Positions 10,483-26,496 of a DNA stretch of 28,602 bases are shown piece by piece (within the stretch, counting starts at the first letter, position 1; each line of letters starts with the position of its first letter). The notes below the pieces were generated by a model. The model had not been told where the DNA came from, searched no databases, and worked only from the letters and a program-made list of their open reading frames with translations. Origin of the DNA: a virus (taxonomy: Duplodnaviria > Caudoviricetes); the IMG/VR virus record IMGVR_UViG_3300033067_002368, positions 1 to 28,602 of that record. One strand, 5' to 3'. A program made the translations under genes and the position numbers.

Positions 10483-11910
10483 ATGAGTGTAATAATAAAA
10501 GGTGGAAACACTGGTCATTTAGCAGATGTGGATACAAATAATAACTTAAAAGTTGCATTACCATTGATTTTGAGTGCTTCTGGTTATGCCTCTATGGTTT
10601 CAGAAGTGGATGATGGTTCTGTTATTGGAGAAAGAACTTTAAGACAATTAGATACGAGTTTTGATTATAGATTACGTGTTGGTATAGATAAAATTTTATG
10701 GCAAGATACTTTTAATCATGCTGTTCTTAATACGTCAAGATATTTAGGCATTACATCAACAATGACAATTTCTGTTGCTGGTGGATTTTTGAACCTAAAC
10801 GTTGGTAACGCAGTAGCAGCTGGTAACGTTGCCAGAGTTCAAACATATAGGACTTTTACTGTCTATGCATCATATTCAACATATGTAGATATGAGAATTA
10901 AGTTTTCTGCTGCATTTCAGGCCAACAATGTAATTGAATTTGGTTTGGGATTAGCAGCAACAACTGCCGCTCCAACAGATGGTATATTTTTTAGAGTTGC
11001 AGGAGGTGTTCTTTTAGGTGTAATAAATAATGGTGGTGTAGAACAAACTGTTAATTTGAAATATACCCCAACGGTTGGTGCAGTCGATCACTATTTAATT
11101 GTTGCCGGAATGGACAGAACAGAATTTTGGATTGATGATATTTTAAGAGGTGTAATAGAAACCCCTTCTTCATTGGGTGCGCCAACATTATCAAATTCAT
11201 TACCAATTTTATTAAGAAATTATAATTCAGGTATAGTTTCTTCTGCAATTCAATTAAATATTGGTCAAATTGCTGTTACTTCCGGAGATATGGATATGGG
11301 TAAGGATTGGCAAACAAATATGGTAACTAATGGATGGTCTTCAGTTTCAGCTCCGGATGGACAAACAGCGGCATTAACAGCAAATTATGCAAATAGTGCT
11401 GCTCCGGCTTCTGCCACTTTATCAAATACTGCAGCTGGATATGCAACTTTGGGTGGACAATTTCAATTTGCCTCAGTTGCAGGTGCGGAAACGGATTATG
11501 CATTATTTGGATACTTAAATCCTGTATCTACAAATGCTATTTCTGGTAAAAACTTAATTATTACAGGTATTAGAATAGACACTTTTAACACAGTTGTTGC
11601 AGTTGCTACTACCGCATTTGTATTTCAGTGGTCAATAGCGGTTGGTTCAACTGCTGTTTCTTTAGCCACTACAGATAGTGCAACCGCAGGAACAAGAGCA
11701 CCAAGACGTTTAACTTTAGGAACACAAACTATGCCTGTTGGTACTGCTGTGGGGGCGATGGCATCTCCAACTATTGATGTTACTTTTAGAACTCCTTTAG
11801 TTGTTGATCCTGGTAGTTATTGTCATATAATATTAAAAATTCCAGTAGGAACAGCAACAGCCACTGAAGTTTTAAGAGGGGTTTGTATGATAAATGGATT
11901 TTTTGAATAA
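10483..11910 (+). CDS. Putative receptor-binding/fibre-tip protein with a ConA/LamG-like lectin domain, paralog 1
   Basis: 475 aa, all-beta, with IEFGLG..DGIFFR..GVINNGG..HYLIV..EFWIDD. Colinear with the next ORF. Confidence 0.6.
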   Translation: MSVIIKGGNTGHLADVDTNNNLKVALPLILSASGYASMVSEVDDGSVIGERTLRQLDTSFDYRLRVGIDKILWQDTFNHAVLNTSRYLGITSTMTISVAGGFLNLNVGNAVAAGNVARVQTYRTFTVYASYSTYVDMRIKFSAAFQANNVIEFGLGLAATTAAPTDGIFFRVAGGVLLGVINNGGVEQTVNLKYTPTVGAVDHYLIVAGMDRTEFWIDDILRGVIETPSSLGAPTLSNSLPILLRNYNSGIVSSAIQLNIGQIAVTSGDMDMGKDWQTNMVTNGWSSVSAPDGQTAALTANYANSAAPASATLSNTAAGYATLGGQFQFASVAGAETDYALFGYLNPVSTNAISGKNLIITGIRIDTFNTVVAVATTAFVFQWSIAVGSTAVSLATTDSATAGTRAPRRLTLGTQTMPVGTAVGAMASPTIDVTFRTPLVVDPGSYCHIILKIPVGTATATEVLRGVCMINGFFE

Positions 11911-11919
11911 AAAATAATT

Positions 11920-13371
11920 ATGAGTATATCAATTAAAAGCGGTAGTTCAACTGATTTATTAGAAGTTTCTTCTGGAAATACTTTAAATATTAATTTTGCT
12001 GATGCCAATACATTTCAAGATAATGGATATTTTGTTTGTGTTTCTGAAGTTGATGATGGTGTGGTTTTAGGAGAAGAAACATATAGAAAAAATAATGCAT
12101 CTATGGATTTTAGAATGCATTCTGGTATAGATAAAATAATTTGGTATGACAAATTTTCTCACTCAACATTAAATACTTCAAGATATAAATGTTCTGCAGT
12201 AACACAAACAATAGTTATTAGTGGTTCTAATTTAGTTTTAAATGCAAATAATTCGGTTACATCTGGTGCGTTTTCTGTTGTAAGTACATATAAACATTTT
12301 TATCCTATTGGCTCTTTTCCTTCTTATTTTGATGTTTCTTTAACTTTTTCTGAAAATCCACATGTAGATAATCATGTTATAGAGTTTGGTTTAGGATTAG
12401 CTTCTGGAACAACCGTAGTAAAAGATGGAATTTATTTTAAAACATCACCTACTGGTTTATTAGGCGTAATAAATTCTGGCGGCACAGAAATTACCGGTGC
12501 AACAAATTTTGTTCCAACAGCTTATACATATAATCATTATTTAATAGTTTCTAATGATGATAATGATACCACTGAGTTTTGGATAGACAATATTTTAAGA
12601 TTAGTTTTGACAAGTGGTAGCGGAAATACAAGTTCTTCTCAATCTTGTTCTTTTCCAATATTTTTTAGGAATTATAATACTGGAGCAGTTAGTACTCCTG
12701 TACAATTAAAAATTAACGAATTTGGTTTTACTTTTGGAGATGTTATTAGAGAAAGATTTTGGAATTTTAATTCTGTTTCAAATGGATTATCTAATATAAA
12801 TCAACCTGATGGTCAACCCCCCGGATCAACCATTAATTCAACAAATAGTACATTTCCAACATCTGCATCATCATTATCTAATTCAACTTCATTATATAGC
12901 TTAATGGGAGGCCAGTTTGTTTTTTCAGGACAAACAAGTGGCGAAACAGATTATGTAATATTTGCTTATCAAAACCCAGAAGCAACATCGACAAACCCTG
13001 GCAAAATTTTAATTATTACAGGAATAAGAGTAGATGTTTGTAATTTTGGAAATACAATGGGAGCAACAACTTCTACTGTATTACAATGGGGAATTGGTGT
13101 TGGAAGTACAGGTGTTGATTTGGCAACGGTTGACGATGCTACAACAGGAACAAGGGGTCCAAGGAAATTAGCATTAGGTTGTATTGGATTTCCTGGTGGA
13201 TCAGTAGTTGGTGCCGTATCAGATAGAATAATTGACACTACTTTTTTAAGTCCATTGTTTATTGAACAGGGTTGTTATATGCATGTTTTTGTAAAAATAC
13301 CAGTTGCACCAACTCCAGCGTCAGGTCAATATTTTAGGGGTAGTGTATATGTTAGTGGTTATTTTGAATAA
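11920..13371 (+). CDS. Putative receptor-binding/fibre-tip protein with a ConA/LamG-like lectin domain, paralog 2
   Basis: 483 aa. Shares VSEVDDG, GIDKI.W, LNTSRY, VIEFGLGLA, EFWID, RNYN, ETDY, IITGIR.D and terminal G(F/Y)FE with paralog 1. Confidence 0.6.
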   Translation: MSISIKSGSSTDLLEVSSGNTLNINFADANTFQDNGYFVCVSEVDDGVVLGEETYRKNNASMDFRMHSGIDKIIWYDKFSHSTLNTSRYKCSAVTQTIVISGSNLVLNANNSVTSGAFSVVSTYKHFYPIGSFPSYFDVSLTFSENPHVDNHVIEFGLGLASGTTVVKDGIYFKTSPTGLLGVINSGGTEITGATNFVPTAYTYNHYLIVSNDDNDTTEFWIDNILRLVLTSGSGNTSSSQSCSFPIFFRNYNTGAVSTPVQLKINEFGFTFGDVIRERFWNFNSVSNGLSNINQPDGQPPGSTINSTNSTFPTSASSLSNSTSLYSLMGGQFVFSGQTSGETDYVIFAYQNPEATSTNPGKILIITGIRVDVCNFGNTMGATTSTVLQWGIGVGSTGVDLATVDDATTGTRGPRKLALGCIGFPGGSVVGAVSDRIIDTTFLSPLFIEQGCYMHVFVKIPVAPTPASGQYFRGSVYVSGYFE

Positions 13372-14247
13372 TTATTGACCATTTAAAGTATCTGTAAAAT
13401 TCTGATTAGTATTAATGATTGTTCTTTCTTCACGAACATCAATGTTTCCATTTGTAAACACTTTCTTTTGAGTGTATAAATTATATTGTCTATAGATTCT
13501 ACCAACAGAATCGAAATAAGATAAAATGCCGGTTTCAAGGTCTCTTGTACTGTTTCCATATAAAGCAATTGCTAAAGTGTCAATAGAGTGTTCTGCCATT
13601 TCAACCTCTATAGTAACAGGGTCAAAGTAAGTATTTGATATTAAAATTTTTTGACCTTTAGAACCAATATCAATTGTTTGATTTTTTGATATTAATGACG
13701 CTTCATCTGGAGTTAGGGTTAAAAATAAATTATTACCTCCTGGGTCTAATACATAAGTAACGCTACCTTGAGTTATGCTATTGTTATTTGGACCTATACT
13801 AACCAAATCACTGCTTGTAATAATTCTGCTTAAATTTTTAATTTTGACATTATTTTTATCAAAATATTCAATTTGGTATCCTATAAGACTGGATGTTTTT
13901 AAAAATTGAAGTGTTGGGATAACTATTCCTTTTTTAGATATTTGAATAGCATTATTATCATTAGTTATTATATATGAACAATCTAAAATAGTAGTCTCAA
14001 AAGTTTTTGGTTTAATTTGAACAGTATAAAATCCAAGGTCTTTAAAAATTGAAGCCGGAAGTCTTAATTTATAAATTCCATCACTACCAATTAATTTTCT
14101 AAAATCCATATTTGTTAAATTATTAAATAGTGGTTTCATATCAGTATCTCCAATAGACTCTCTTGATGGAGAAAATGAATATAAAATATCAACATCATCA
14201 ATGTTGACATCTGCAAGTTTCTTTGTTCCGTATATACCTATAGCCAT
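13372..14247 (-). CDS. Hypothetical virion structural protein
   Basis: 291-aa ORF with its own TATTTATA motif, last gene of the minus-strand block. No enzyme motif seen. Confidence 0.65.
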   Translation of the reverse strand: MAIGIYGTKKLADVNIDDVDILYSFSPSRESIGDTDMKPLFNNLTNMDFRKLIGSDGIYKLRLPASIFKDLGFYTVQIKPKTFETTILDCSYIITNDNNAIQISKKGIVIPTLQFLKTSSLIGYQIEYFDKNNVKIKNLSRIITSSDLVSIGPNNNSITQGSVTYVLDPGGNNLFLTLTPDEASLISKNQTIDIGSKGQKILISNTYFDPVTIEVEMAEHSIDTLAIALYGNSTRDLETGILSYFDSVGRIYRQYNLYTQKKVFTNGNIDVREERTIINTNQNFTDTLNGQ

Positions 14248-14251
14248 TTGT

Positions 14252-14259
14252 TATAAATA
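14252..14259 (-). promoter_or_regulatory. TATTTATA candidate late promoter
   Basis: + strand TATAAATA equals - strand TATTTATA, 4 nt upstream of ATG 14247. Confidence 0.55.
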
Positions 14260-14267
14260 GATTATAA

Positions 14268-16343
14268 TTAATTTGTTGAATTAGAAATAGCCATTTTTAA
14301 TTCGTTTTTTAATTCATTCAGTTTTGGAGTGATAATATTTTCGAGATCATCAAATGAATTAAAGTTGTATTTTGAGCCAAAATCATAATAGATATTAGCT
14401 ATTGTAAAATCGTTAATAGACCCAGTTTTAACTATTTCTATTGAAAACTTAATAATTCTAAAGCAATGAAAAATTAGTTTATTTATAATATAGTCATTAT
14501 TTTTACTTTTAAAATATGATCTAATTAAGTTCATATTAAAATTTATTTTAGACTCAACAGAATTGTAAAGTCTTTGATAGTTTATTGGTGGTTCAGAAGT
14601 TAATAATTGTTTTATTTTAGCATATTCTGGCAAAAATCTAAATTCTATTGTTGGGAATTCAGCATTTGCAAGATCACTGTTATATTTTGAAATACTTAAT
14701 ATTTTGATTTGATATAGTTCATCCGAAAATACTTGTTCAGAAATATCGGTATCCGCCACAATTGTAAAATCCATGTCTGAATTAAAATTGTCTGTACCAT
14801 AAACTTTTGAGCCTATAAAAAAAATATTTTTAATGTCTTTCTCATTTAATTTAGATAATTTAACTATTCTTTTTATATCGAATTTTGAAGAAATGTTTTG
14901 GTTGATTATTTTATCTGCTGAGTTATCTAATGGACTATTTGGTATTTTTACTATTTTAATATCATTATTTCTATAAAACTCCATATCATCTACGTTATAA
15001 TTATAATCAACAAAACAATTAAGAAACACTTTATTTTTAAAAATGTTTTTAACAAAAAGATATGAGTTGTCTTTATATTGTTTTGTTTCTATAAATTCTT
15101 CACATCTTATAATTAAAAAACCAATAACTATATTAGAGGCATTTCTTAAAGTTAAAATTATTGTATCTTCTGGTAAAATTTTATCTGTTATTGTTAGATA
15201 ATCAGTTGTTGTGTTTGTACCATTAGAAATTACAATTGATTTTTGGTTATATGGTATAAGTTGAGGGTTTGTAAAAAAATTATACCCTAAGACAGCTGTG
15301 CTATATTTTTCTGCCTGCACATATAAATAAGTATTTCCTATTGATGGTTGGTTTAAACTAACAGTAAACGGAATAGTTATTGAACTATAAATATTTTTTT
15401 CAAATTCAATTAATTGGTGGGTTTCGAATTGCGCTGAATAATTTAAATTTCCTTGATTATAATATGAATCTTCTGAAACAGAAAAAGTGTTTGTATTATT
15501 TATTATAAATCTATATTGAGAAATAAAAGTACCGGGCTTATTATTTAATAACTGTTCGGGTTGATAATTAAAATTTTGTACAAATTGACTATAATCAAAA
15601 AAATCAAAATTAAACCCAGTTCTTCCTTGCCCTGGAATTATTGGAGTGTTTAAATTATTAAAATCAATATTTTGAATTGGTGAATAACCAAAATTAAAAT
15701 TTTTATTTTTATTTTTTAAAATATATGGAATATTAGCATAAATAATATTAATATCTACGTTATTTATAAAATAATATGCTTTATCTATATAAGATTCTTT
15801 AATGCAATCCTTGAAGTATTTAGAATTGTTTATTGAACTTATAGTTTTTTTTTGATGGTCAATTTTAAGATTTATAAAATAACTATCATCTAAAGGATTT
15901 AATGTTGGATTTAATAAATCTATTTGTTTATTATTAAGTCTTTCATTGTTTGTATTAAAATTAGTTTCAAAAGTTGTGTGTCCAGAAGTTTGGTTTAAAC
16001 TTTGTTTTATACTTACTTTTTCATTAAAATTTTGTACATAATTATTTTTATAAAATTCATTAAACGTATTGGATAATTTTTTGTTATCATAAAAAATTTC
16101 TTTAAATTCTAAAATATTTGTGTTTTCTTGTAAGTAAGAAACAAAATCTTCAGCTAATTGACTGTTTTCTGGTTTATCTAAAAAATCTTTAATATTATTA
16201 TCATTAACTAATTCTCCACCATTTTTTGTTATATAAGAATAGTAATTGTTAGAAAAAGACAAGGATTCTCCGGTAGATATAATAGTATCTAAATTGGTTA
16301 TACCGCTAAATTTTGGATTTTGTATAATTCTAACTTTTTGCAT
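14268..16343 (-). CDS. Structural-type protein (Calx-beta-like middle region) fused to a C-terminal Pol-beta superfamily nucleotidyltransferase (RlaP-like)
   Basis: 691 aa. The C-terminal ~200 aa carry IFFIGSKVYGTDNFNSDMDFTIV (the GS..YG.....SDxD NTase signature) and the helical KLIFHCFRI..SIEIVKTGSINDF motif. The middle region FTVSLNQPS..STAVLGYNF..TIILTL resembles Calx-beta. Confidence 0.8.
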   Translation of the reverse strand: MQKVRIIQNPKFSGITNLDTIISTGESLSFSNNYYSYITKNGGELVNDNNIKDFLDKPENSQLAEDFVSYLQENTNILEFKEIFYDNKKLSNTFNEFYKNNYVQNFNEKVSIKQSLNQTSGHTTFETNFNTNNERLNNKQIDLLNPTLNPLDDSYFINLKIDHQKKTISSINNSKYFKDCIKESYIDKAYYFINNVDINIIYANIPYILKNKNKNFNFGYSPIQNIDFNNLNTPIIPGQGRTGFNFDFFDYSQFVQNFNYQPEQLLNNKPGTFISQYRFIINNTNTFSVSEDSYYNQGNLNYSAQFETHQLIEFEKNIYSSITIPFTVSLNQPSIGNTYLYVQAEKYSTAVLGYNFFTNPQLIPYNQKSIVISNGTNTTTDYLTITDKILPEDTIILTLRNASNIVIGFLIIRCEEFIETKQYKDNSYLFVKNIFKNKVFLNCFVDYNYNVDDMEFYRNNDIKIVKIPNSPLDNSADKIINQNISSKFDIKRIVKLSKLNEKDIKNIFFIGSKVYGTDNFNSDMDFTIVADTDISEQVFSDELYQIKILSISKYNSDLANAEFPTIEFRFLPEYAKIKQLLTSEPPINYQRLYNSVESKINFNMNLIRSYFKSKNNDYIINKLIFHCFRIIKFSIEIVKTGSINDFTIANIYYDFGSKYNFNSFDDLENIITPKLNELKNELKMAISNSTN

Positions 16344-16684
16344 TATTTATTAATTGTTATGTTGTATAATTTAGATTTATCATATATTGTTTCTGTTTTT
16401 AAATATGAGTTTGTGGATGTTTGTCCAGTTGTACTTGTGGCTTTAATTTCTGAAAAGAAACCCAATTCAATAAAAAAAGGATTGAAATTACCTCTTTGTA
16501 TAATAGATGTGTTTTTATCTTTTTCTATATTAATATAATCATCAAATTTTGAATAATTTACATAAAGAGGAATATTAACAAAAAAATCATTTGAATTTTG
16601 TTCAGAAAAGGTACCTCCTGGTTGAGGTATACCATTTTTTCTTTTATCTAAAAATAACCTAAATTTAATTGTATTATTTTCCAT
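16343..16684 (-). CDS. Small hypothetical virion protein, translationally coupled to the NTase fusion
   Basis: 113 aa, TAATG overlap at 16343, contains the DFFVNIPL motif shared with its neighbours. Confidence 0.7.
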   Translation of the reverse strand: MENNTIKFRLFLDKRKNGIPQPGGTFSEQNSNDFFVNIPLYVNYSKFDDYINIEKDKNTSIIQRGNFNPFFIELGFFSEIKATSTTGQTSTNSYLKTETIYDKSKLYNITINK

Positions 16685-16687
16685 TAT

Positions 16688-16695
16688 TATAAATA
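16688..16695 (-). promoter_or_regulatory. TATTTATA candidate late promoter
   Basis: + strand TATAAATA, 3 nt upstream of - strand ATG 16684. Confidence 0.55.
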
Positions 16696-16705
16696 TTATT
16701 TAAAA

Positions 16706-19645
16706 TTAAACTACTCTAAAAGGTATTGGAGATTGTGTGCAATCTGGATTTATTTTAGATATTTTCCAATTATTGTCTGCTATAAGAGAGCCAGTATTAG
16801 AAAATACTAAAACATCATTAATTAAAACATTTTTGTATAATTGTGTTGGGCTTAAAGATGGATAAGGATAACACGACATTGTTCCAAATATGTTTCCGCT
16901 TATACCTATATTATTATATTTGTTTTCTAAAAAATAAGAAACAGGAATATTATTATTAGAATTTATTTCCACATTCATATCACAAATATTAAAATCAGAA
17001 ATTGTATTAAATGTAATGGTTCCAAATGTTTTAACAGGTATTTTTACATTATGTAATTTAAATCTATATTTAAATTTATCAAATCTATTATAGGTAGAAT
17101 TATATCTATAATTAGATTGTAAAATTAATGATAAATTATTAAAATCAACTTCAGTATTATTGAAAAGTACAGATTGATGTGTTGGTATTTTTTTGTTTAA
17201 TATTATAACTTCTCTTGATCCCATATTTATAACCTCAAGAACCAAATTTGTTTTTGTTTCAATCTTTGTATTATTCCAAGAATTAAATAATTTAAATGGA
17301 TTTACTGCAATATAGGTACCGTTTATTTTTTCAAGAAGCATTTTAGACGAAATTTGATTTTGTTCAAATTGTGATTGTATTAATATTTCTCCAAAATAAG
17401 CATGACAATATTTTTCATTATAAGGACCAGCAGGAATTGTGCTTATTCCTACAGGAAGGGTGCTATTATTATCATAACAATCTTCAGAAACAATTTCTTT
17501 TGAAAATTTAATTATTGTGATTGATTTTTGAAAAAGACCGTGGTATTTTGATAAAATAGCCCCATTAAACAAAACCTTGCTTTCATTTAAATTTGATGCA
17601 TTTTGTGTACATTCATTTGTTTTGGTATTAAGTGTTGAAAATGCATTATATATTTCTGTTATTAAAAAATATTGATTAGTTCCAGATAATCCAGCATTAT
17701 ATATATTGAATATGTTTGGTTTAGATATTTGGAATTGATCAGGATTATATTCATCATATGCTAATGTAGCATTTTTTGGGTATGTTTTAGGTACATTAAT
17801 AAATTTAAAACTATATTTAGAATTTTCATAATAATAATTTTTCCAATCTGAATTTGCTGGTAAATCTAATATTATATCATCTGTAACAGAACTTAAATTT
17901 AATTTAATTACAAATGTATCTCCTGTGTTTATGACTTTATTGTTATAAAATATTTTTTCTCCAATATTTTTTATTTCAAAGTCACAATCAAAATCATCAG
18001 TTACATAATTTTGGCTTTTTCCAGGATTTCTGTATAAATCCAATGAATTTTTTTCTAAAATAATATTTCTATCAATAATGTCAGAAGAAATAAAAATTGA
18101 TTTAAAAATGCCAATATTTGCATTTTTGTTTATTGGTAAAACAAATCTTGTTGATAGTGGTAATGTCGAATCTTTTAGTGTTATTTTGATTTGTGGATAT
18201 GAGTTAGCATTAGATTGAGAAACTGGAATAATTCCAAGTGATGATTGAATTAAATCTAAGATAATAATTTCATTCTCTGAATATCCTACTTGTCCTTCTA
18301 AGTATATTTTAAATGTAACCGAATCAGCACTTAAAGGAACATCAATTTTTATTTCTGTTTTTTTTGATTTTGGTTCATTAAAACTAAAATCAAAAAAAAC
18401 CTTTGCAGTACTATTATCATTATGTCTAATGGTAATAGTTTCTCCAGGCACTGTTAATGGACTACTAAAATTAACTTTAAATGTTAAAATTGGAGGCGCA
18501 GATGCGTTAATTGTATTAAAAGTTGAAAAATATGGACTTGTATTATTTGGTGAATTTCCAAATAAAGGTCTATATGTTTCGTATGTATCAAATGTAAAGA
18601 AGGCAGTTACTGGAACATCATCACTATCTATGTATAAAATCATAGAATGATTCGAGTTAATATCTAATCTTGAATTTAATAATGGAACAATTCTAAATTG
18701 AATTTTTTCTACATTTTCTACTTGAAGATCGTTAATAATATTAAATTGTATATATTTTGTTTTTTCACCTATGCTCCAAGATAAAACTTGTTCATTAAAT
18801 TGAAAATCAGTTCCTAAAGAAGCATCAGTAAACAATTCGCCATATTTATCAATATTGTAATCTATTGTTATTTTAACTTTTTCTAATCCATATTTTGATG
18901 GTTCGTTCAATGTAACTGGTATTAGTAGTGTTGATTGATTGCTTTCATTAATTCTCATTTCTGAATTCTCAAAATATACTACTTGTGGTCCGTGAGGTTC
19001 TAAATTAAATTTAATCCAATGTTTATCAAAGAAAAAAGGAAAATTATTATTAATCGTTTCAATTTCATTATTATCGTTAAAGTCTGCGCTTTCTGTTCCA
19101 AACTCTACAAACTCACCATCTGAATCAAAAAAAATAAAAGGCAATGTAAATTGACCATATAATTCATTTGAAGAATCAAAAATTTCTATATTTATTTCTT
19201 TGTTTGAATTAAATTCATCCTTATTAATTTCAAAATGGAAAAAATAACATCCCTTATTGGTTCCGTAAATATTTTTGGTAAGATTACTATCGCTACTAAG
19301 TGGTTTAGTTAAAATATTAAATGAATATCCGGTTATTGCACCGGGATAATTATATGGAATAAAAATATTACTGTTGGTTGATGCTGATTTGTTATCAAGA
19401 TTTTTTATTTTAATGTTTAAATTTAAATTATCACAATGTCCATATCTTGATTCGACCATTCCATATAAACAAAATTTCAAAGAATTATTTCTTTCTTTAA
19501 TAAATTGATTTTGAAAATCAAAAGTATTATAAAGAAAATCTTTTTTTAAACTTTCTATTTCACGATTAAGCTCAATATTAATAAATTCATCAGTGTTTTG
19601 GTTTCCAATAAATTTATATTTTCCTAATATAATTTTTTCTTCCAT
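16706..19645 (-). CDS. Large virion protein with tandem Calx-beta domains and two C-terminal repeat domains
   Basis: 979 aa. VYFENSEMRINES..IPVTLNEPS..ASLGTDF..LSW..GEKTKYIQFNIIND.QVENVEKI is a typical Calx-beta pattern, and a second, degenerate copy follows. Confidence 0.75.
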   Translation of the reverse strand: MEEKIILGKYKFIGNQNTDEFINIELNREIESLKKDFLYNTFDFQNQFIKERNNSLKFCLYGMVESRYGHCDNLNLNIKIKNLDNKSASTNSNIFIPYNYPGAITGYSFNILTKPLSSDSNLTKNIYGTNKGCYFFHFEINKDEFNSNKEINIEIFDSSNELYGQFTLPFIFFDSDGEFVEFGTESADFNDNNEIETINNNFPFFFDKHWIKFNLEPHGPQVVYFENSEMRINESNQSTLLIPVTLNEPSKYGLEKVKITIDYNIDKYGELFTDASLGTDFQFNEQVLSWSIGEKTKYIQFNIINDLQVENVEKIQFRIVPLLNSRLDINSNHSMILYIDSDDVPVTAFFTFDTYETYRPLFGNSPNNTSPYFSTFNTINASAPPILTFKVNFSSPLTVPGETITIRHNDNSTAKVFFDFSFNEPKSKKTEIKIDVPLSADSVTFKIYLEGQVGYSENEIIILDLIQSSLGIIPVSQSNANSYPQIKITLKDSTLPLSTRFVLPINKNANIGIFKSIFISSDIIDRNIILEKNSLDLYRNPGKSQNYVTDDFDCDFEIKNIGEKIFYNNKVINTGDTFVIKLNLSSVTDDIILDLPANSDWKNYYYENSKYSFKFINVPKTYPKNATLAYDEYNPDQFQISKPNIFNIYNAGLSGTNQYFLITEIYNAFSTLNTKTNECTQNASNLNESKVLFNGAILSKYHGLFQKSITIIKFSKEIVSEDCYDNNSTLPVGISTIPAGPYNEKYCHAYFGEILIQSQFEQNQISSKMLLEKINGTYIAVNPFKLFNSWNNTKIETKTNLVLEVINMGSREVIILNKKIPTHQSVLFNNTEVDFNNLSLILQSNYRYNSTYNRFDKFKYRFKLHNVKIPVKTFGTITFNTISDFNICDMNVEINSNNNIPVSYFLENKYNNIGISGNIFGTMSCYPYPSLSPTQLYKNVLINDVLVFSNTGSLIADNNWKISKINPDCTQSPIPFRVV

Positions 19646-22600
19646 TATTTAAATCCATATTTAAAATTTCCACCATTAGGAGTGGTTTTTGTTGTTGTTA
19701 ACGGTACATCTTCCAAGTATATATATGGATTAGGTGTAGGTTTGTTTGTTCCGTCCCAATATGTGGTTACCCAATTGTTTGTTGCTACAGGAAAACTAAA
19801 TCCATAATTTGGCCAGTTACTCCATAAACAATATGCAAATCCATTTATTGCAACCTTTGGATTTGGTAAATCTATATTTAATAATGGTTGATCATTATTT
19901 ATATAATCATATAAATAAAAAAGAGGAGATATATATATTTCTCTTTTTGTTGAATCTTCTCCGTTTAAATTAATTATTGTAGGAATAACTTGCACTAAAT
20001 AATAATTTGGTATGTTTGATTCAATATCTGCTTTTTTATCAAATTGAATAACTCCTCCATAGGCAATATCACCAGTATTTGTTGCATAGCCTCCACCAGA
20101 ACTATAATCTGTTTGAATCGCCCAAAATGTTATTTCGTAAGATGCACTATCATAAGAATTTGTTTCTGAATTATATGAATTATTTGATGGTAAATTAAAA
20201 GAATAATCAGAATAAATTGCATCTTTAAAAAAGTAATTTGAGCCAGGTTCAATTTCTGCAACATCTGATCCAAATCCAATTGTTACTTTTGTTGTTCCTA
20301 AGTTTTTAATTAGTATTGGAGCGTTTGTAACTTTATAAAACTGTTTCGGTCCATCATCCCCACCTCCAGATTGTCCTATTGTTAACCATGTAGGAATGTC
20401 GGTTTTTCTCGTTCTTCTATTTTCTGCAATTAATGTTTGTAAATTTATTCGAATAAATTTTTCTGTTGGAGGAGGTAATCTTTTGGCTAATCTTTTAGGT
20501 TCAACTATTCTATAAATATCCAATGATCCAATTTTATACCAAGGAGCAGATGAATCCATTCTAATTAAAATATTTTCTCTTGATTTATATATCCCATCAA
20601 AATAACTCATAGGACCCCAATTTAATGATGTTGGAGGTGTATTTTTATTTTGATCTCCATCGCTCAATAAATCAACCCAACCACCATAAGTATTAATTCT
20701 TGGCCATCCTTCTGGTTTTAACCAATAAACATACCCACATTCAACTCTTTGCCATTTTTCTCCGTTTAATACATTTGATGTGGGTAAATTGTTAAGGATT
20801 CTTTTTGGATTATCAATTCCTGGTGTAAATCCATTTGACCATTGTGTTCCCCAAAAATTTTCTTTTTCATAAAGATAAACCCCATGAGTGGTTACTTCTC
20901 TTGCAAACATATTAAAATTTCCTGCTCCACCAATATTCTGACATCCATATCCTGAAGATTTAATTTCTTCAGCAACAAAATGTCCTGGATAATCACCATC
21001 TAAAAATATTGGGTCTTCTGGAGTTGTTGCCCATCCTTTTTCTCCATTTGAAGAAGTTATATATTGTTTTGATGTGTTAAAATTACTTGGAGGTTTGGGT
21101 ATATTATATGGCTCAGGATAATTAATTGACCAAGGTTTTTCATATGGCCAAACACCTAATTTACCTACTGGTTTAATAATATTTTGATTTCCATAATCTG
21201 CATTTTTATTTAAATCAAAATGATTTCGTCCAATAGGTCCTGTTGAAAACCACTCTCTTTCAAATCCTGTAGATTTATATGCATAATCTTGGTTTCCATA
21301 ATACATTTTAAATTGATAAGATGCTAACCAAACTCCTTTTTCTCCATTACTGTTTATTCCGTTTGGGTCGTATAGATTAGCTGGTAATTTAAAATAATTA
21401 AAGTTTGTACTTGTAAATTCTACTTTGTTCTTTTTTTGTTTAAACTCTCCTGTCCATTCATGTGCTTGATCTAAATTTCTATCATATACATCTGCAATTT
21501 CTACAACTTCTACTTTTGGTCTAACATTAAAGTCAAACGGTTTGGTCATATCTCTAATGTCAACAGTTATTGGAGTTGTAATTCCATCAGCAAACATTTC
21601 TTCTATTGTTTTATTTTTATAAGCAATTGGAGAAATAGCATATGTTGCCCATTTCCTTAAATCAAGATTTACTTTTAAGTTTATTTCTGTGTAACCAGTT
21701 TGATTACTCCCCCAAGAAGGGACAATATTTATAGGAATTTGTCTAAAAAAATAATGCGGTATTTTATCAATATTTGGATTATCTTCTGTTGGATAAGAAA
21801 AAAAATTTAAAGCAACTTCATCGGATGTTAATCCTTGTTTAAGTATGTTTACTTCATACATAAAGGTTTGTTCACCGATTGGTATATTATGAAGAATAAA
21901 TTCTCCGTTTTCATTGGTAATAGCAGTATGTTTATACATTTCTGGTATATTATCAATGGTGCTTGTATCTTTCAAATAGTTATAATCAAACAAGAAAGAA
22001 TCTTTATCAAAATATGGACTATAATTATTTTTTAAATTTAATGCTATGTTTTCTTTAATATGTAAAGCAATTCTATTACCATTTTCATCTAAAGAGGTAA
22101 TTTGAGGATATTGTTCTGATGAATTAAAAATAGCAACTATAGTATTTTTGAGTGGAATAATTATTTTTTCGCCATTTTCATCTGCTATGTTTTGTATAGC
22201 AGTTAATCTTCCAAATAAAACACCAGTATCTGAGTTTTGATCAGGATATTCATTAATTGGTTTATTATATATATTTAAAGTATCTAAACTATCAATAGTT
22301 CTATTTATAGATAAATTTATAAACATATCATTTATTTCAACATCTTCAAATTCTACATATGTAATCAATCCAGATGTATTACCACTCATTAAACCCAAAG
22401 AGCGCAAATATTGTTTTTCAATATTATTGAAATATCTTTTTTGTATTTTTTCTTTAGTGTTTTGGTTAATCAGGCTCTTTTCTTCAAAAATAACACTTCC
22501 TTCATAAAATGTGTTTCCGGATGTATATTCAAAAATATTATTTTCATTTCTTTTCGTGATTATGTCTAAATAATTTTCTACAATTTTTTTAGAACCATTG

Positions 22601-22722
22601 GGTGAAACCAAAAGATATGCTAATTCACCGCCAGATTCTGTTTGTCCAGAAAAGGTGGTGAAATATTTAATTCTTGTACCAATTTTTTTGGTCTCTAATT
22701 TTATTTCTTCTTTTTTTAGCAT
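19645..22722 (-). CDS. Large virion protein with a carboxypeptidase-regulatory-like/transthyretin-like domain
   Basis: 1025 aa with GVLFGRL..IPLKNTIVAIF..TAITNENGEFILHNIPIGEQT. TAATG coupled to the 979-aa gene. Confidence 0.7.
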   Translation of the reverse strand: MLKKEEIKLETKKIGTRIKYFTTFSGQTESGGELAYLLVSPNGSKKIVENYLDIITKRNENNIFEYTSGNTFYEGSVIFEEKSLINQNTKEKIQKRYFNNIEKQYLRSLGLMSGNTSGLITYVEFEDVEINDMFINLSINRTIDSLDTLNIYNKPINEYPDQNSDTGVLFGRLTAIQNIADENGEKIIIPLKNTIVAIFNSSEQYPQITSLDENGNRIALHIKENIALNLKNNYSPYFDKDSFLFDYNYLKDTSTIDNIPEMYKHTAITNENGEFILHNIPIGEQTFMYEVNILKQGLTSDEVALNFFSYPTEDNPNIDKIPHYFFRQIPINIVPSWGSNQTGYTEINLKVNLDLRKWATYAISPIAYKNKTIEEMFADGITTPITVDIRDMTKPFDFNVRPKVEVVEIADVYDRNLDQAHEWTGEFKQKKNKVEFTSTNFNYFKLPANLYDPNGINSNGEKGVWLASYQFKMYYGNQDYAYKSTGFEREWFSTGPIGRNHFDLNKNADYGNQNIIKPVGKLGVWPYEKPWSINYPEPYNIPKPPSNFNTSKQYITSSNGEKGWATTPEDPIFLDGDYPGHFVAEEIKSSGYGCQNIGGAGNFNMFAREVTTHGVYLYEKENFWGTQWSNGFTPGIDNPKRILNNLPTSNVLNGEKWQRVECGYVYWLKPEGWPRINTYGGWVDLLSDGDQNKNTPPTSLNWGPMSYFDGIYKSRENILIRMDSSAPWYKIGSLDIYRIVEPKRLAKRLPPPTEKFIRINLQTLIAENRRTRKTDIPTWLTIGQSGGGDDGPKQFYKVTNAPILIKNLGTTKVTIGFGSDVAEIEPGSNYFFKDAIYSDYSFNLPSNNSYNSETNSYDSASYEITFWAIQTDYSSGGGYATNTGDIAYGGVIQFDKKADIESNIPNYYLVQVIPTIINLNGEDSTKREIYISPLFYLYDYINNDQPLLNIDLPNPKVAINGFAYCLWSNWPNYGFSFPVATNNWVTTYWDGTNKPTPNPYIYLEDVPLTTTKTTPNGGNFKYGFK

Positions 22723-22758
22723 GTCTTAATATAATAAAACCAATATTAATGTAAGTAA

Positions 22759-24183
22759 TTATTTAAATTTATTAACTACACTAAAATTAATTTTTTCAGA
22801 AAGCATTTTGTGTGTTCCGAGATCGTGTATTTTAAAATAAATTTGATAATTTTGATTTGTTAACAACCAAGAGGTGTCTAAATCGAAAAATGATTTATGT
22901 ATTCCATTAATTGTTGAAGAATTTGCAAATGTCCAAGGAATTAATTCTAAATTTCCATTCATCATTAATTTATATTCTAATCCAAAATCTATTGATGGCC
23001 TATTTTGACTATAATTAACTCTTGCATCTATATATATTCTCAATGTTTCATCATTTGACAATATTGCATTATTATCTAATCCGTAAGTGGTTATAACATA
23101 ATCATTTACATCTCTTTGATTTGAATAGTAATAATTATCTTTAATTTCGAATTGTTGAGTTATATCTTGTTGATCATATGGTGGATTAAAGCTTATGCCA
23201 TTCCAAACGTCTTTATATTTTTGTCCTTTTGTTGCTCCGCTCATCCAAATATCTACATAATACGTTCCTTTGCATAGTTGATTTATTGGTAATCCTGTAT
23301 AAATATTTGTATTTGATGAATTTTTTATCGTTACAGTACCGGCAGAGTAAAAGTTTGTCGGAGTATTCCCGCTAAATAAATATAAAAATAACCTACTTAC
23401 TCTATTGTTTGTGACTTGATTTCTATCATCTCTTATTGTTTGATTATAATTTACTTCAATAAATGGTTTAAAGGCCGAATTTGTATGATGTGTATAAAAA
23501 GAAGTTATATATCTTGTATCAGAACTTATTAATTCATAAGTTCTACTAAATGCAATGCCTAATCCATAATTGGTATATGTTCCAGTTAGCCAATCATTAA
23601 CAATGTCTGTAATATCAATATCTAAATCTTCATCACCACGTTCAAAATGCTGAATTCCATAATTTGGTGTAGATGCGGTTGGGTTTATAAATATTCCAGG
23701 CTCAGTCCAAGAGGAAGTAGTTGTTGCTGAATTCCAGTTACTATATCCGGTATAGTCAACTTGACCATATGACTTAACCATATAGCTTTGTTTTCCTAAA
23801 TCATATCCTCTTCCTTCATCCCAAAATTTATCAATTGGAAAAGCAATTAAGTCAAAAGATTGAGCAATTTGCTTAAATAATGGATTAACTTGATATTCTT
23901 TTGTTAATTCTTTATCCGAAGGAATTGCATTGTACATCTTTAGTTTATAAGACGTTACATTTCCAGACATAATTTGTTTTGATGTTATTTTTGTTGTAAA
24001 TTCAGATAAATCAAAATATATAAGATGTCTACTAATACTGTTTTCTCTATAAATATTATTATAGAAATAACCACCACCATACCACAAATTGGCAATTTGA
24101 TTTTGTGATGAATTATAGTGTTCAAATAAAGAAGAAGATGCTATTCCGTTTTCTTTTGTTGGATATATTCTAAATACGCTCAT
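22759..24183 (-). CDS. DNRLRE/CBM96-like domain virion protein (474 aa, start revised to MSVFRIYP)
   Basis: Pattern SRHLIYFDLS..LKMY..WDEG..NW....W..PG..IDITDIVNDWL.G...NYGL...F.T....P.IEVNY. The track start at 24282 overlaps the gp25 gene and both promoter motifs, so 24183 is preferred. Confidence 0.75.
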   Translation of the reverse strand: MSVFRIYPTKENGIASSSLFEHYNSSQNQIANLWYGGGYFYNNIYRENSISRHLIYFDLSEFTTKITSKQIMSGNVTSYKLKMYNAIPSDKELTKEYQVNPLFKQIAQSFDLIAFPIDKFWDEGRGYDLGKQSYMVKSYGQVDYTGYSNWNSATTTSSWTEPGIFINPTASTPNYGIQHFERGDEDLDIDITDIVNDWLTGTYTNYGLGIAFSRTYELISSDTRYITSFYTHHTNSAFKPFIEVNYNQTIRDDRNQVTNNRVSRLFLYLFSGNTPTNFYSAGTVTIKNSSNTNIYTGLPINQLCKGTYYVDIWMSGATKGQKYKDVWNGISFNPPYDQQDITQQFEIKDNYYYSNQRDVNDYVITTYGLDNNAILSNDETLRIYIDARVNYSQNRPSIDFGLEYKLMMNGNLELIPWTFANSSTINGIHKSFFDLDTSWLLTNQNYQIYFKIHDLGTHKMLSEKINFSVVNKFK

Positions 24184-24199
24184 TTTTATTGGCTTTTTC

Positions 24200-24248
24200 A
24201 TAAATAGATAATCAAAAAAATGCTTGTTTTTTTTAGTTGTATATTTAT
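24200..24248. promoter_or_regulatory. Divergent pair of TATTTAT candidate late promoters
   Basis: ATAAATA at 24200-24206 (TATTTAT on -, 16 nt before ATG 24183) and TATTTAT at 24242-24248 (+, 6 nt before ATG 24255). Confidence 0.65.
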
Positions 24249-24254
24249 TAAGTA

Positions 24255-24638
24255 ATGAGAAGTCTCGGTATATTATTCCCAATTAAAGAATCTATTGACG
24301 GAGGGGTTTTTAAATCTTCTGTTTCGACAAATGAGGCAGTTAAGTCAGATATGATTGCTTTATTAACTCTTAGAAAATATCAAAGAGTAATGCAAAGTAG
24401 AATGTATAGTCCAATATATGATTATATTTTTGAACCCTTAGATGATATTACTAAAGATGAATTAAATCAAAAAATAAAAGAAAAAGTAAAAGAATTTATA
24501 CCTCAGGTTGAAATTAAAAGAATAGTATTTACTCAAAAGGAACAAGAAAACTTTCTTTCAATAAAAATAGTATATACAATTATTGATTTTTTAAATTTAG
24601 ATGAGACATTAACATTAGAAATTCCAACTCAATTTTAA
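24255..24638 (+). CDS. Baseplate wedge subunit / sheath initiator (T4 gp25/GPW-like)
   Basis: Pattern GILFP..AVKSDMIALLT.RK.QR.M......IYDYIFEPLD...IKE.V.EFIPQVEI, directly upstream of a gp6-like gene. Confidence 0.9.
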   Translation: MRSLGILFPIKESIDGGVFKSSVSTNEAVKSDMIALLTLRKYQRVMQSRMYSPIYDYIFEPLDDITKDELNQKIKEKVKEFIPQVEIKRIVFTQKEQENFLSIKIVYTIIDFLNLDETLTLEIPTQF

Positions 24639-24642
24639 TTAA

Positions 24643-26496
24643 ATGGCAGATTTAGGTAAAAGTCAAAATTATTTAAACAGAGATTATCAATCAATTAGAT
24701 CGGATTTGATGAATCTTTTAAAAGTTCATTATCCAGACCAATTTCAGGATTTTAATTCTGCAAGTATTGGCATGTCTTTGGTTGAATTAATGGCTTATGT
24801 ATCTGATATTTTATCATATAATACTGATAAAAGATTTAATGAAATGTTTTTAGATGGAGTAACCGAACGTTCGGCTGTCTTTAGATTGGCCAAAACATTT
24901 GGTTATAGTCCGGTTGGTTATAGACCTGCTATGTCTATTGCTGATATTGAAATTGAAGTTCCTCCTACTGCGGATGGTCCGGACACATCTTATCTTCCTG
25001 TTTTTAGACCCGGTGTACAAGTTAAGGGTGCTGGACAAGTCTTTGAGACAGTAAATGAGTGTGATTTTTTCTCTGATTATTCTGAAGATGGAGTTGCAAA
25101 CAGAAAAATCTTGCCTGTTTTTAATGCAAATCAGGATATTTTAAGATATAGAATTATAAAAAGAGAAAAAGTTAAAGCTGGTTTTACTACTATTTATAAA
25201 AAAGAAATTTCTGCAAGCGAGGCTTCTACTCCTTTTTTTCAGATTACATTGCCTGAAAATAATGTTTTAGAAATTATTAGCATTATTTGCAAGCCATCTG
25301 TTGGTCTATTTTCACCTCCAACATTCTCTGAATTTAATGATCCAACTATTAAATATTTTGAGGTTGATGACTTAGCTCAAAAACAAGTATTTTTAAGCGA
25401 TGACACCCAGCCAACTGTAAATGGTATTAGTAGTGGTAGATTTGTAGATGTTCCACAAAGATTTATAAAAGAATTTATGGCTGATGGTACATGTAAAATT
25501 ACATTTGGTGGTGGGACTGCAGATTACGATGCTTATGAGACGTATTTGGCTAATATAGCCATAAACGATAGCAATATTGAGCTGGCAGATGTATTTAATA
25601 ATAATGCCCTCGGTGTTAAATTGCCAGCCAATTCTACTTTATATGTTCAGTATAGGGTTGGTGGTGGTTCACTATCTAATGTGGGTGCAAATATACTACA
25701 ACAGATAGGAAATGTTGATGCTGTTTTTGTTGGAACGGATTCTACTATACAACAATCAGTTATTAATAGTGCAAGAGCAACAAATCCATTGCCAGCAATA
25801 GGTGGGGGAGACCTACAAACAGTAGAGGAAATAAAATATTTAATAGCATCTAATTTTGCAGCTCAAAAAAGATGTGTAACATTGCAAGATTACATATCAA
25901 GAGCATATCAATTGCCTGGAAAATATGGTACTCCATTTAGAATTCATGGAAAAGTAGAGGATAATAAAGTTAAATTATATATTTTGACTAAAGATGCCAA
26001 TGGTAAAGTTGGGACAAAATCAACAAGTGTAATAAAAAATAATCTTGTAGAATATATGATTCCTTATAGAATGATAAATGATTTTGTTGAGATTAATGAT
26101 GGAAAAGTAATTGATCTTCAAATAGAAGTTGACTTATTTGTTGATAAAACATATAATTCTAATGAAGTTAAGGTTAATACTATTAATATGATTAAAGATT
26201 TTATGAATATAGATAAATGGCAAATGAATCAACATATATATATCTCTCAAATTGTTGATGCTATTCGTGAAATTCCAGGAATTATTAACGTTGTAGATAT
26301 TAGATTTTATAATATGGAAGGCGGAATTTATAGTAACACTTTAATTTCTCAGGCTACTGGTCAAAGAGAAAATATTTTACATACTGGAGTTTATAGAACA
26401 AGAATAGAACCAATTAGTAATGCTATTTTTTCAACTCCGGTTTCTATGTTTCAAATTAGATTATCAGAATCTGATATTTTAGTAAGAACAAGTTAA
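24643..26496 (+). CDS. Baseplate wedge protein (T4 gp6 / baseplate J-like)
   Basis: 617 aa with YLNRDYQSIR..DF..AS.G..LVELMAYV.DILSY..D..LAK.FGY, ITFGGG, YRVGGG..SN, GG.D..TVEEIK and AQKRCVTLQDY. Confidence 0.92.
   Translation: MADLGKSQNYLNRDYQSIRSDLMNLLKVHYPDQFQDFNSASIGMSLVELMAYVSDILSYNTDKRFNEMFLDGVTERSAVFRLAKTFGYSPVGYRPAMSIADIEIEVPPTADGPDTSYLPVFRPGVQVKGAGQVFETVNECDFFSDYSEDGVANRKILPVFNANQDILRYRIIKREKVKAGFTTIYKKEISASEASTPFFQITLPENNVLEIISIICKPSVGLFSPPTFSEFNDPTIKYFEVDDLAQKQVFLSDDTQPTVNGISSGRFVDVPQRFIKEFMADGTCKITFGGGTADYDAYETYLANIAINDSNIELADVFNNNALGVKLPANSTLYVQYRVGGGSLSNVGANILQQIGNVDAVFVGTDSTIQQSVINSARATNPLPAIGGGDLQTVEEIKYLIASNFAAQKRCVTLQDYISRAYQLPGKYGTPFRIHGKVEDNKVKLYILTKDANGKVGTKSTSVIKNNLVEYMIPYRMINDFVEINDGKVIDLQIEVDLFVDKTYNSNEVKVNTINMIKDFMNIDKWQMNQHIYISQIVDAIREIPGIINVVDIRFYNMEGGIYSNTLISQATGQRENILHTGVYRTRIEPISNAIFSTPVSMFQIRLSESDILVRTS

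Follow-up and report, generated by a model that had tools for sequence, protein, structure and literature searches.

A Pol-beta-type nucleotidyltransferase domain fused to a baseplate-cluster protein in uncultured jumbo phages

The viral record IMGVR_UViG_3300033067_002368 (Duplodnaviria; Caudoviricetes), which was analysed over its full 28,602 nt and is referred to here as the window, has a GC content of 28% and contains a minus-strand gene for a 691-aa protein. In this protein, a Pol-beta-type nucleotidyltransferase (NTase) domain is fused to the C-terminus of a protein of the baseplate gene cluster, which we call the carrier. The fusion is real, old, selected and dispensable, and it belongs to an uncultured lineage of jumbo phages. 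The reading that we prefer, with a probability of about 40%, is that the enzyme would act while tails are being assembled in the cytoplasm, with an acceptor near its anchor as the target. The original prediction, made from the sequence of the window, knew of no described fusion of this kind, and none was found in the literature that we searched, which did not extend to supplements (e.g. that of PMC7824862) that possibly name the family. The fused gene comprises the following features.

14268..16343, minus strand: fused gene, 691 aa, a single open frame with carrier core, Calx-beta-like domain, linker and NTase
15750..16343, minus strand: conserved N-terminal carrier core of ~200 aa (NNV..FLD and FYDNKKL motifs), of no known family
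15087..15446, minus strand: Calx-beta/Ig-like domain, residues ~300-419, an insertion in the carrier
15000..15017, minus strand: CFVDYN motif, residues 443-448, closing the carrier core; M454 (in DDMEF) lies just after it and is part of the carrier
14889..14948, minus strand: linker, residues 466-485, low-confidence and variable in length; unfused orthologs end here
14274..14879, minus strand: Pol-beta NTase domain, residues 489-690, an alpha/beta lobe and a four-helix bundle
14796..14813, minus strand: GSKVYG motif, residues 511-516 (G511, S512, Y515)
14769..14780, minus strand: SDMD metal-binding motif, residues 522-525 (S522, D523, D525), present in 17/17 proteins of the core fused clade
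14709..14711, minus strand: Q545, the canonical third-carboxylate position, which is N in 31 and D in 24 of 64 free homologs
14643..14645, minus strand: E567, candidate third acid, present in 17/17 core fused proteins and 62/64 free homologs
14457..14480, minus strand: K622-x3-H626-x2-R629 in the helical bundle, predicted triphosphate-binding face

The two catalytic motifs thus lie in the one frame where they had been predicted, with K622, H626 and R629 downstream of them. Gap-free single contigs span the junction in five studies (X2, X3, X7, X9 and X10); the copies in X3 and X7 show 20 and 18 differences to the window gene, and that in X2 is identical and possibly the source. Runs labelled or presumed to be RNA gave only short pieces, none of which crosses the junction. 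We sorted 168 proteins into 23 with carrier and NTase, 74 with the N-terminal core and no NTase match (some possibly truncated by the contig), two middle fragments and 69 with the NTase only. After addition of proteins derived from the loci and removal of duplicates, the trees contained 26 distinct fused proteins. The core fused orthologs exhibit 31-79% identity to the window protein, and the carrier and NTase trees have clades in common. Since the fusion recurs in 26 distinct proteins and contigs of five studies cross the junction, it is not an artefact. A mis-assembly, a readthrough in one genome or an internal start yielding a free NTase is now very improbable and largely refuted. The unfused carriers do end exactly at the junction, and M454 is in frame 35 residues ahead of the NTase domain, as such an origin would have it. 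Against this stand the contigs, the divergence of the orthologs and the concordant clades. Furthermore, M454 is located within the carrier's own motif, and in 7/17 core fused proteins the stretch from that motif to the NTase lacks any Met; M454 was therefore rejected as the start of a free enzyme. With regard to wider surveys, a single-sequence NTase scan of viral contigs gave 35 candidates and a scan of GTDB genomes gave 222, none of which was confirmed in either case. One short contig (L021, 547-801), in which a ribonucleotide-reductase-like start is joined to the last 35 carrier residues, is probably chimeric.

The window protein on its own gives weak profile matches (Pfam Polbeta, E 0.013, and NTP_transf_2, E 0.022, both below cut-off; PHROG 388, E 5e-4). 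The structural model is clearer. The AlphaFold model of the 691-aa protein, built on an alignment of 111 sequences, has a mean predicted local distance difference test score (pLDDT) of 83. Residues 300-441 and 489-690 mostly exceed 90, and the linker at 466-485 falls below 50. The low predicted template modelling score (pTM, 0.46) is consistent with independent domains. Modelling the NTase from its single sequence yielded a poor result (pLDDT 51.8), which was left unused. Foldseek matches the C-terminal domain to kanamycin and aminoglycoside nucleotidyltransferases (KNTase/ANT) and to HalB, with E values of 4e-6 to 1e-4. HalB (9dbh) is the top solved structure among 48,161 chains (Z 10.9, root-mean-square deviation 4.1, 170 aligned residues, 16% identity), and the Atlas search gives a template modelling (TM) score of 0.88 to a viral NTase cluster and of 0.76 to RlaP clusters. 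The superfamily motif hG[SG]-x9-13-DxD is present as G511-S512 and D523-x-D525. Residues 489-690 are therefore confirmed as a Pol-beta nucleotidyltransferase, as had been predicted.

Across 64 free homologs, conservation reaches 95% or more at ten positions, namely G511, S512, Y515, S522, D523, D525, E567, K622, H626 and R629. All ten are present in 16/17 core fused proteins, including the window protein. In the core clade, 8/10 of these positions are invariant vs 6/193 of the remaining columns, on a tree that is 9.3 changes per site long (Fisher p 2e-9). The strain polymorphisms give a ratio of nonsynonymous to synonymous polymorphism (pN/pS) of 0.095 for the NTase (3 nonsynonymous and 8 synonymous; only 11 changes) and of 0.30 for the carrier (11 and 9; only 20 changes). 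Conservation of the acidic residues had been proposed as a check, and the outcome is divided: the DxD is conserved, and the third-carboxylate slot is Q or N in 17/17 core fused proteins; the invariant E567 may be a substitute for the third acid. The domain could also be a non-catalytic pseudo-enzyme with a structural or binding role (nucleotide, sugar-nucleotide or receptor). This would agree with the Q/N at the third-acid slot and with a sister group of fused proteins, the long clade, in which nine proteins keep the domain with only 3-8 of the ten residues (three in P0020 and P0022) and invariance is not concentrated on the ten positions (p 0.32). That these decayed domains are retained indicates that catalysis need not be complete for the fold to be maintained. 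Nevertheless, N is the commonest residue at the slot in the free family too (31/64), and in the window's clade selection is centred on the catalytic residues. A pseudo-enzyme thus suits the long clade more than the window's clade, for which we regard it as improbable. As the residues are intact in the core clade and the domain is lost or decaying elsewhere, the window-clade enzyme is probably active but dispensable, its activity being judged from conservation.

With regard to the carrier, an alignment of 37 unfused orthologs delimits a ~200-aa core with the closing motif CFVD[YL]N. This motif comes right after residue ~190 in minimal ~200-aa orthologs; its displacement to 443-448 in the window protein is due to an insertion containing the Ig domain. 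Residues ~300-419 resemble Calx CBD1 (middling Z of 6.8, root-mean-square deviation 2.8, 95 aligned), in agreement with the Calx-beta-like segment of the original prediction; the fold comparison only barely sampled residues 1-300. The D..FIN motif, by which the carrier had been linked to neighbouring structural genes, was not borne out, and paralogy with those genes was rejected (hhalign probability at most 10.6% in 10/10 family pairs). A domain scan of distant carrier orthologs (n=17) detected Calx-beta in five, PA14 in two and PASTA plus Hint in one; PKD or Calx-beta also occurs in carrier orthologs of distant loci, and the payload varies from none to >1000 aa. As the slot otherwise holds extracellular adhesion folds, it probably faces outward. 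Based on synteny, the upstream motif and these payloads, the carrier is probably an outward-facing virion protein, a previously unannotated ~200-aa anchor of the jumbo-phage baseplate cluster that accepts variable payloads. Two orthologs exhibit particular architectures. P0163, nested in the long fused clade, carries C-terminal PASTA and Hint/intein-like domains and no NTase, which amounts to a payload swap. In L041 (7887-10563), the carrier is apparently split into a 256-aa core gene and a 634-aa Calx-beta gene beginning with CFVDLN, which is followed by a homing-endonuclease-like gene.

The window encodes a T4 gp19-like tube protein and wedge proteins resembling gp25 and gp6, and it contains many large unannotated genes. 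The features surrounding the fused gene are as follows.

24255..26496, plus strand: gp25-like and gp6-like baseplate wedge genes
16706..24201, minus strand: genes of 480 aa (DNRLRE-like), 1025 aa and 979 aa (weak Calx-beta) in the same cluster
16689..16696, minus strand: ATATTTAT, a putative late-promoter-like motif 12 nt upstream of the 113-aa gene
16343..16684, minus strand: 113-aa gene, invariant upstream neighbour, coupled to the fused gene through TAATG
13372..14247, minus strand: 291-aa downstream gene, highly conserved (58-86% identity), with its own TATTTAT at 14253-14259

The baseplate setting, the coupling and the upstream motif are all as first described, and the setting proved to be a fixed slot in the gp25/gp6 cluster. 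The order [1025]-[979]-[113]-carrier-[291] is constant across the loci examined, and eight distinct other fused loci have the same neighbours as the window. The first viral loci were 6/6 fused (five distinct). Twelve metagenome loci comprised eight fused, one short fragment and three unfused, the latter with a genuine carrier stop 21-39 nt ahead of the next gene. A further 16 loci comprised five previously known and 11 new unfused ones (10 distinct; carrier 256-1286 aa), with gp6 immediately upstream of the slot in 8/11, as far as the fetched DNA goes. In L041, two genes are inserted into the cluster order. Relatives in which the carrier and the NTase are encoded by neighbouring separate genes would have spoken against a fusion, and none was found: a free NTase lies beside the carrier in 0/13 distinct unfused loci (tblastn for L012 and L013, ORF map for L020, profile search for L033-L043). 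As the domain is lost whole, the tethering of the NTase to the carrier seems to be selected.

TATTTAT, a putative late promoter, occurs upstream of 33/105 open reading frames vs 5.9 in shuffles (maximum 15), counted in structural regions only and without an early-gene contrast. Shine-Dalgarno-like sites precede 3/105 frames and A is present at -3 in 78/105, which we take to be the Bacteroidota pattern. The nearest cultured tube and gp6 proteins (Flavobacterium immuto and Microcystis Mel-JY01) exhibit 28-36% identity, and the baseplate regions of Flavobacterium immuto, Mel-JY01 and LR756508 gave no carrier match. Carrier-bearing contigs reach 217, 372 and 519 kb, so these are jumbo myophages; the holders come from freshwater, riverine, wastewater and fish metagenomes.

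Several neighbouring genes are of interest in themselves. The 291-aa gene is far more conserved than its neighbours, which makes it a good marker and likely a core structural protein, and its search against PDB sequences gave nothing meaningful and no family match. The 979-aa (16706-19645) and 113-aa (16343-16684) neighbours vary in length (195-1155 aa and 105-308 aa) with conserved N-termini, so that the carrier, 979-aa and 113-aa genes form three adjacent anchor-plus-payload genes. At 10483-13371, two tandem paralogous ~480-aa genes adjoin tail-fibre-like genes; four such paralogs are present in L002 (12993-18810) and a ~710-aa gene instead in L001, L003, L012 and L013. This cassette is variable and probably receptor-binding. 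In the long clade (G001 C1:5034-14557 and 33400-57000; L047-L049), large clusters of sugar genes (glycosyltransferase, NDP-sugar epimerase/dehydratase, UDP-glucose dehydrogenase and FkbM methyltransferase) flank the baseplate cluster, which suggests glycosylation of the virion or the host surface.

The fused NTase is a member of a family of free ~200-aa proteins encoded by large phages (34 and 47 GenBank records), for which no function was found in the literature searched. Its members, which include XacN1 ORF208, phage G gp109, PBC2 gp154, PJN02 gp096 and proteins of Lak phages, share the whole domain with the window protein at 24-36% identity, and have the same ten invariant residues; the model reaches a TM of 0.82 to the top viral match. 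In contrast to the fused form, they are stand-alone, lie in accessory regions and have a conserved basic helix (SSNSWVKAKKK, residues 597-612). The mean net charge of this helix is +3.4 in free proteins, +0.8 in the core fused clade and -0.9 in the long clade; that it is not kept in fused forms suggests a changed acceptor.

In a careful NTase tree (90 rows, after removal of four long-branch free rows), the 26 fused proteins lie on one side of a branch (support 93/62; 96% of bootstrap trees), with the core clade at 99/85 and the long clade at 100/100. Quick trees gave weak support for a single fused group (Shimodaira-Hasegawa values of 78, 0 and 57). On the carrier tree, fused status requires 8 changes, and the approximately unbiased test rejects a clade made up of fused proteins only (p-AU 5e-72). 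The simplest reading of these trees is one fusion gain followed by about seven losses; two gains, one each for the core and long clades, are possible. The NTase would accordingly be an optional accessory, with about seven losses and with decay in a sister clade, and virions are built without it. The complete 519-kb genome G005, which has an unfused carrier, has a free NTase copy elsewhere. No free copy was found in the complete 372-kb genome G006 or in three partial genomes, and in 4/4 fused genomes searched the fused copy is the sole NTase match. Two genes after the free NTase of G005 lies a 196-aa protein (L051, 2365-2955) with motifs that are presumably those of class II aminoacyl-tRNA synthetase cores. 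The free homologs of XacN1 and Xoo-sp13 (L007, 2545-8652; L057, 726-6715) lie inside an NAD-salvage island, between NMN adenylyltransferase/Nudix genes on one side and nicotinamide phosphoribosyltransferase genes on the other.

The fused enzyme might keep its likely ancestral task on a diffusible substrate of the cytoplasm, either adding nucleoside monophosphate (NMP) to RNA or tRNA 3' ends in repair or making decoy cyclic dinucleotides, with the fusion just ensuring strong late expression. Free members are found near RNA ligase genes (PBC2, PJN02), tRNA clusters or NAD-salvage genes, the predicted structure resembles RlaP clusters, and the cyclic GMP-AMP (cGAMP)-making NTase of Bcp1 matches the free-family profile over the N-lobe (E 7e-14). 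Moreover, G001 (83% complete) has no free copy, for which the fused one could substitute. On the other hand, the fused forms have lost the basic helix, carrier and NTase never occur as adjacent split genes in the 13 unfused loci, the second motif of the cGAMP-making enzymes is missing, and searches with PF09414 and PF10127 found no Rnl2-type ligase or RlaP in the incomplete genomes G001-G004. We consider a retained ancestral task rather unlikely.

The original prediction had compared the domain with RlaP-like enzymes. RlaP (PF10127; PfRlaP and PaRlaP) combines, like the window NTase, a Pol-beta lobe with a C-terminal helical domain. It adds one or two NMP to RNA 3'-OH ends and has three catalytic Asp (PMC12776372); the third of these positions is Q/N in 17/17 core fused proteins. 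RlaP is linked to RNA ligase genes, whereas the neighbours of the fused NTase are baseplate-cluster genes in all fused loci. The PF10127 profile does not match the window protein at E<=0.1, and the free homolog P0044 reaches 22.8 bits (cut-off 23). Membership of RlaP was thus rejected on both profile and motif, and the domain is assigned to the separate large-phage family.

The NTases of phages Bcp1 and Av05 make cGAMP and act against TIR-STING (10.1101/2022.06.09.495361). Their first motif, GS-x-AY[GAN]T-x4-SDxD, differs from GSKVYGT-x4-SDMD of the window by one mismatch (V for A), and they share an equivalent downstream Glu. However, their second motif, NP-x-h2-[DE], ~60 residues past SDxD, is replaced by EFPTIE at +42 in the window, their C-terminal halves are not alignable with the window NTase, and they are free proteins; membership of this group was rejected on the second motif. 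HalB of the Hailong system, which primes on its own tyrosine (PMC13434031), is a bacterial defence enzyme paired with the membrane channel HalA. The window locus has no such partner: the 113-aa and 291-aa genes on either side are constant parts of the cluster, whether or not the NTase is there. The likeness of fold to HalB is no evidence of a common function. Gad2, a further NTase, acts against Gabija (PMC13728456).

We propose that the carrier likely anchors the NTase on the assembling tail, where the enzyme would, still in the cytoplasm and ahead of lysis, transfer a nucleotide from a nucleoside triphosphate (NTP) onto a hydroxyl acceptor close by. The acceptor would be tethered, for example a Tyr, Ser or Thr in the fusion protein or in an adjacent protein, or a glycan of the virion; that of the free ancestors, unlike the fused form, was probably an RNA end. 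The timing follows from the availability of NTP. After lysis, a protein in an outward baseplate position has no NTP, and wedge-attached proteins of contractile tails remain outside the cell, where NTPs are scarce. An outward site without NTPs makes action at the assembly stage likelier than action at infection. Of the roles first envisaged, modification during assembly thus fits better, and T4 Alt-like action at infection, in which the virion-borne enzyme would target a host receptor, a defence protein or RNA, is the weaker branch. The intact active site, the fusion to a late baseplate-cluster protein and a patchy distribution (8 changes on the carrier tree), as is typical of conflict genes, would suit such action. 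The delivery of enzymes with the virion, as by T4 Alt, MuF/portal fusions and polyvalent proteins, is also an established theme, and like the window gene such enzymes are encoded among late structural genes (PMC5512222); our domain scans detected neither a MuF nor a portal domain. Alt itself is head-packaged according to the same source, the linker shows neither a protease nor a release motif, and the payload slot otherwise holds outward adhesion folds. Action at infection therefore appears quite unlikely.

Several observations weigh against modification during tail assembly. The carrier core found 0 hits among PDB sequences, has no consistent PHROG and, with residues 1-300 barely sampled by fold, matches no known structural protein, and no cultured phage was found with the carrier or with the 291-aa gene. 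The TATTTAT count covers structural regions. On the enzyme side, the canonical third acid is replaced by Q545 in the window protein, the core fused protein of L002 keeps 8/10 key residues (G511E and H626Y), and the long clade keeps degraded domains. The relatives also point elsewhere: giant-virus relatives of the NTase are fused to nucleases, and among seven inspected contexts of the free family, some of which are mutually related, an RNA ligase lies 2-3 genes away in two (PBC2, also with polynucleotide kinase, and PJN02) and tRNA clusters are nearby in two. Beyond modification during tail assembly, we put forward tentatively, and with more doubt, the wider scenario that in freshwater jumbo myophages a free RNA-repair-type NTase became a virion-mounted modifier of protein or glycan, directed at the tail or at the host surface or defence.

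The enzymes known from phage tails are mostly wall- or capsule-degrading ones. A tail-mounted transferase, if true, would mean post-translational NMP marking of virions or a new early counter-defence, and NMP attached covalently to virions, or by virions to a target, would be unlike anything in the literature searched. At 200 aa, the NTase domain is small and well folded and lends itself to assays in vitro, and through it an as yet uncharacterised NTase family of many large phages becomes accessible. Its intact, decaying and lost states form a natural series with built-in controls, and the carrier is useful in itself as an unannotated ~200-aa payload anchor.

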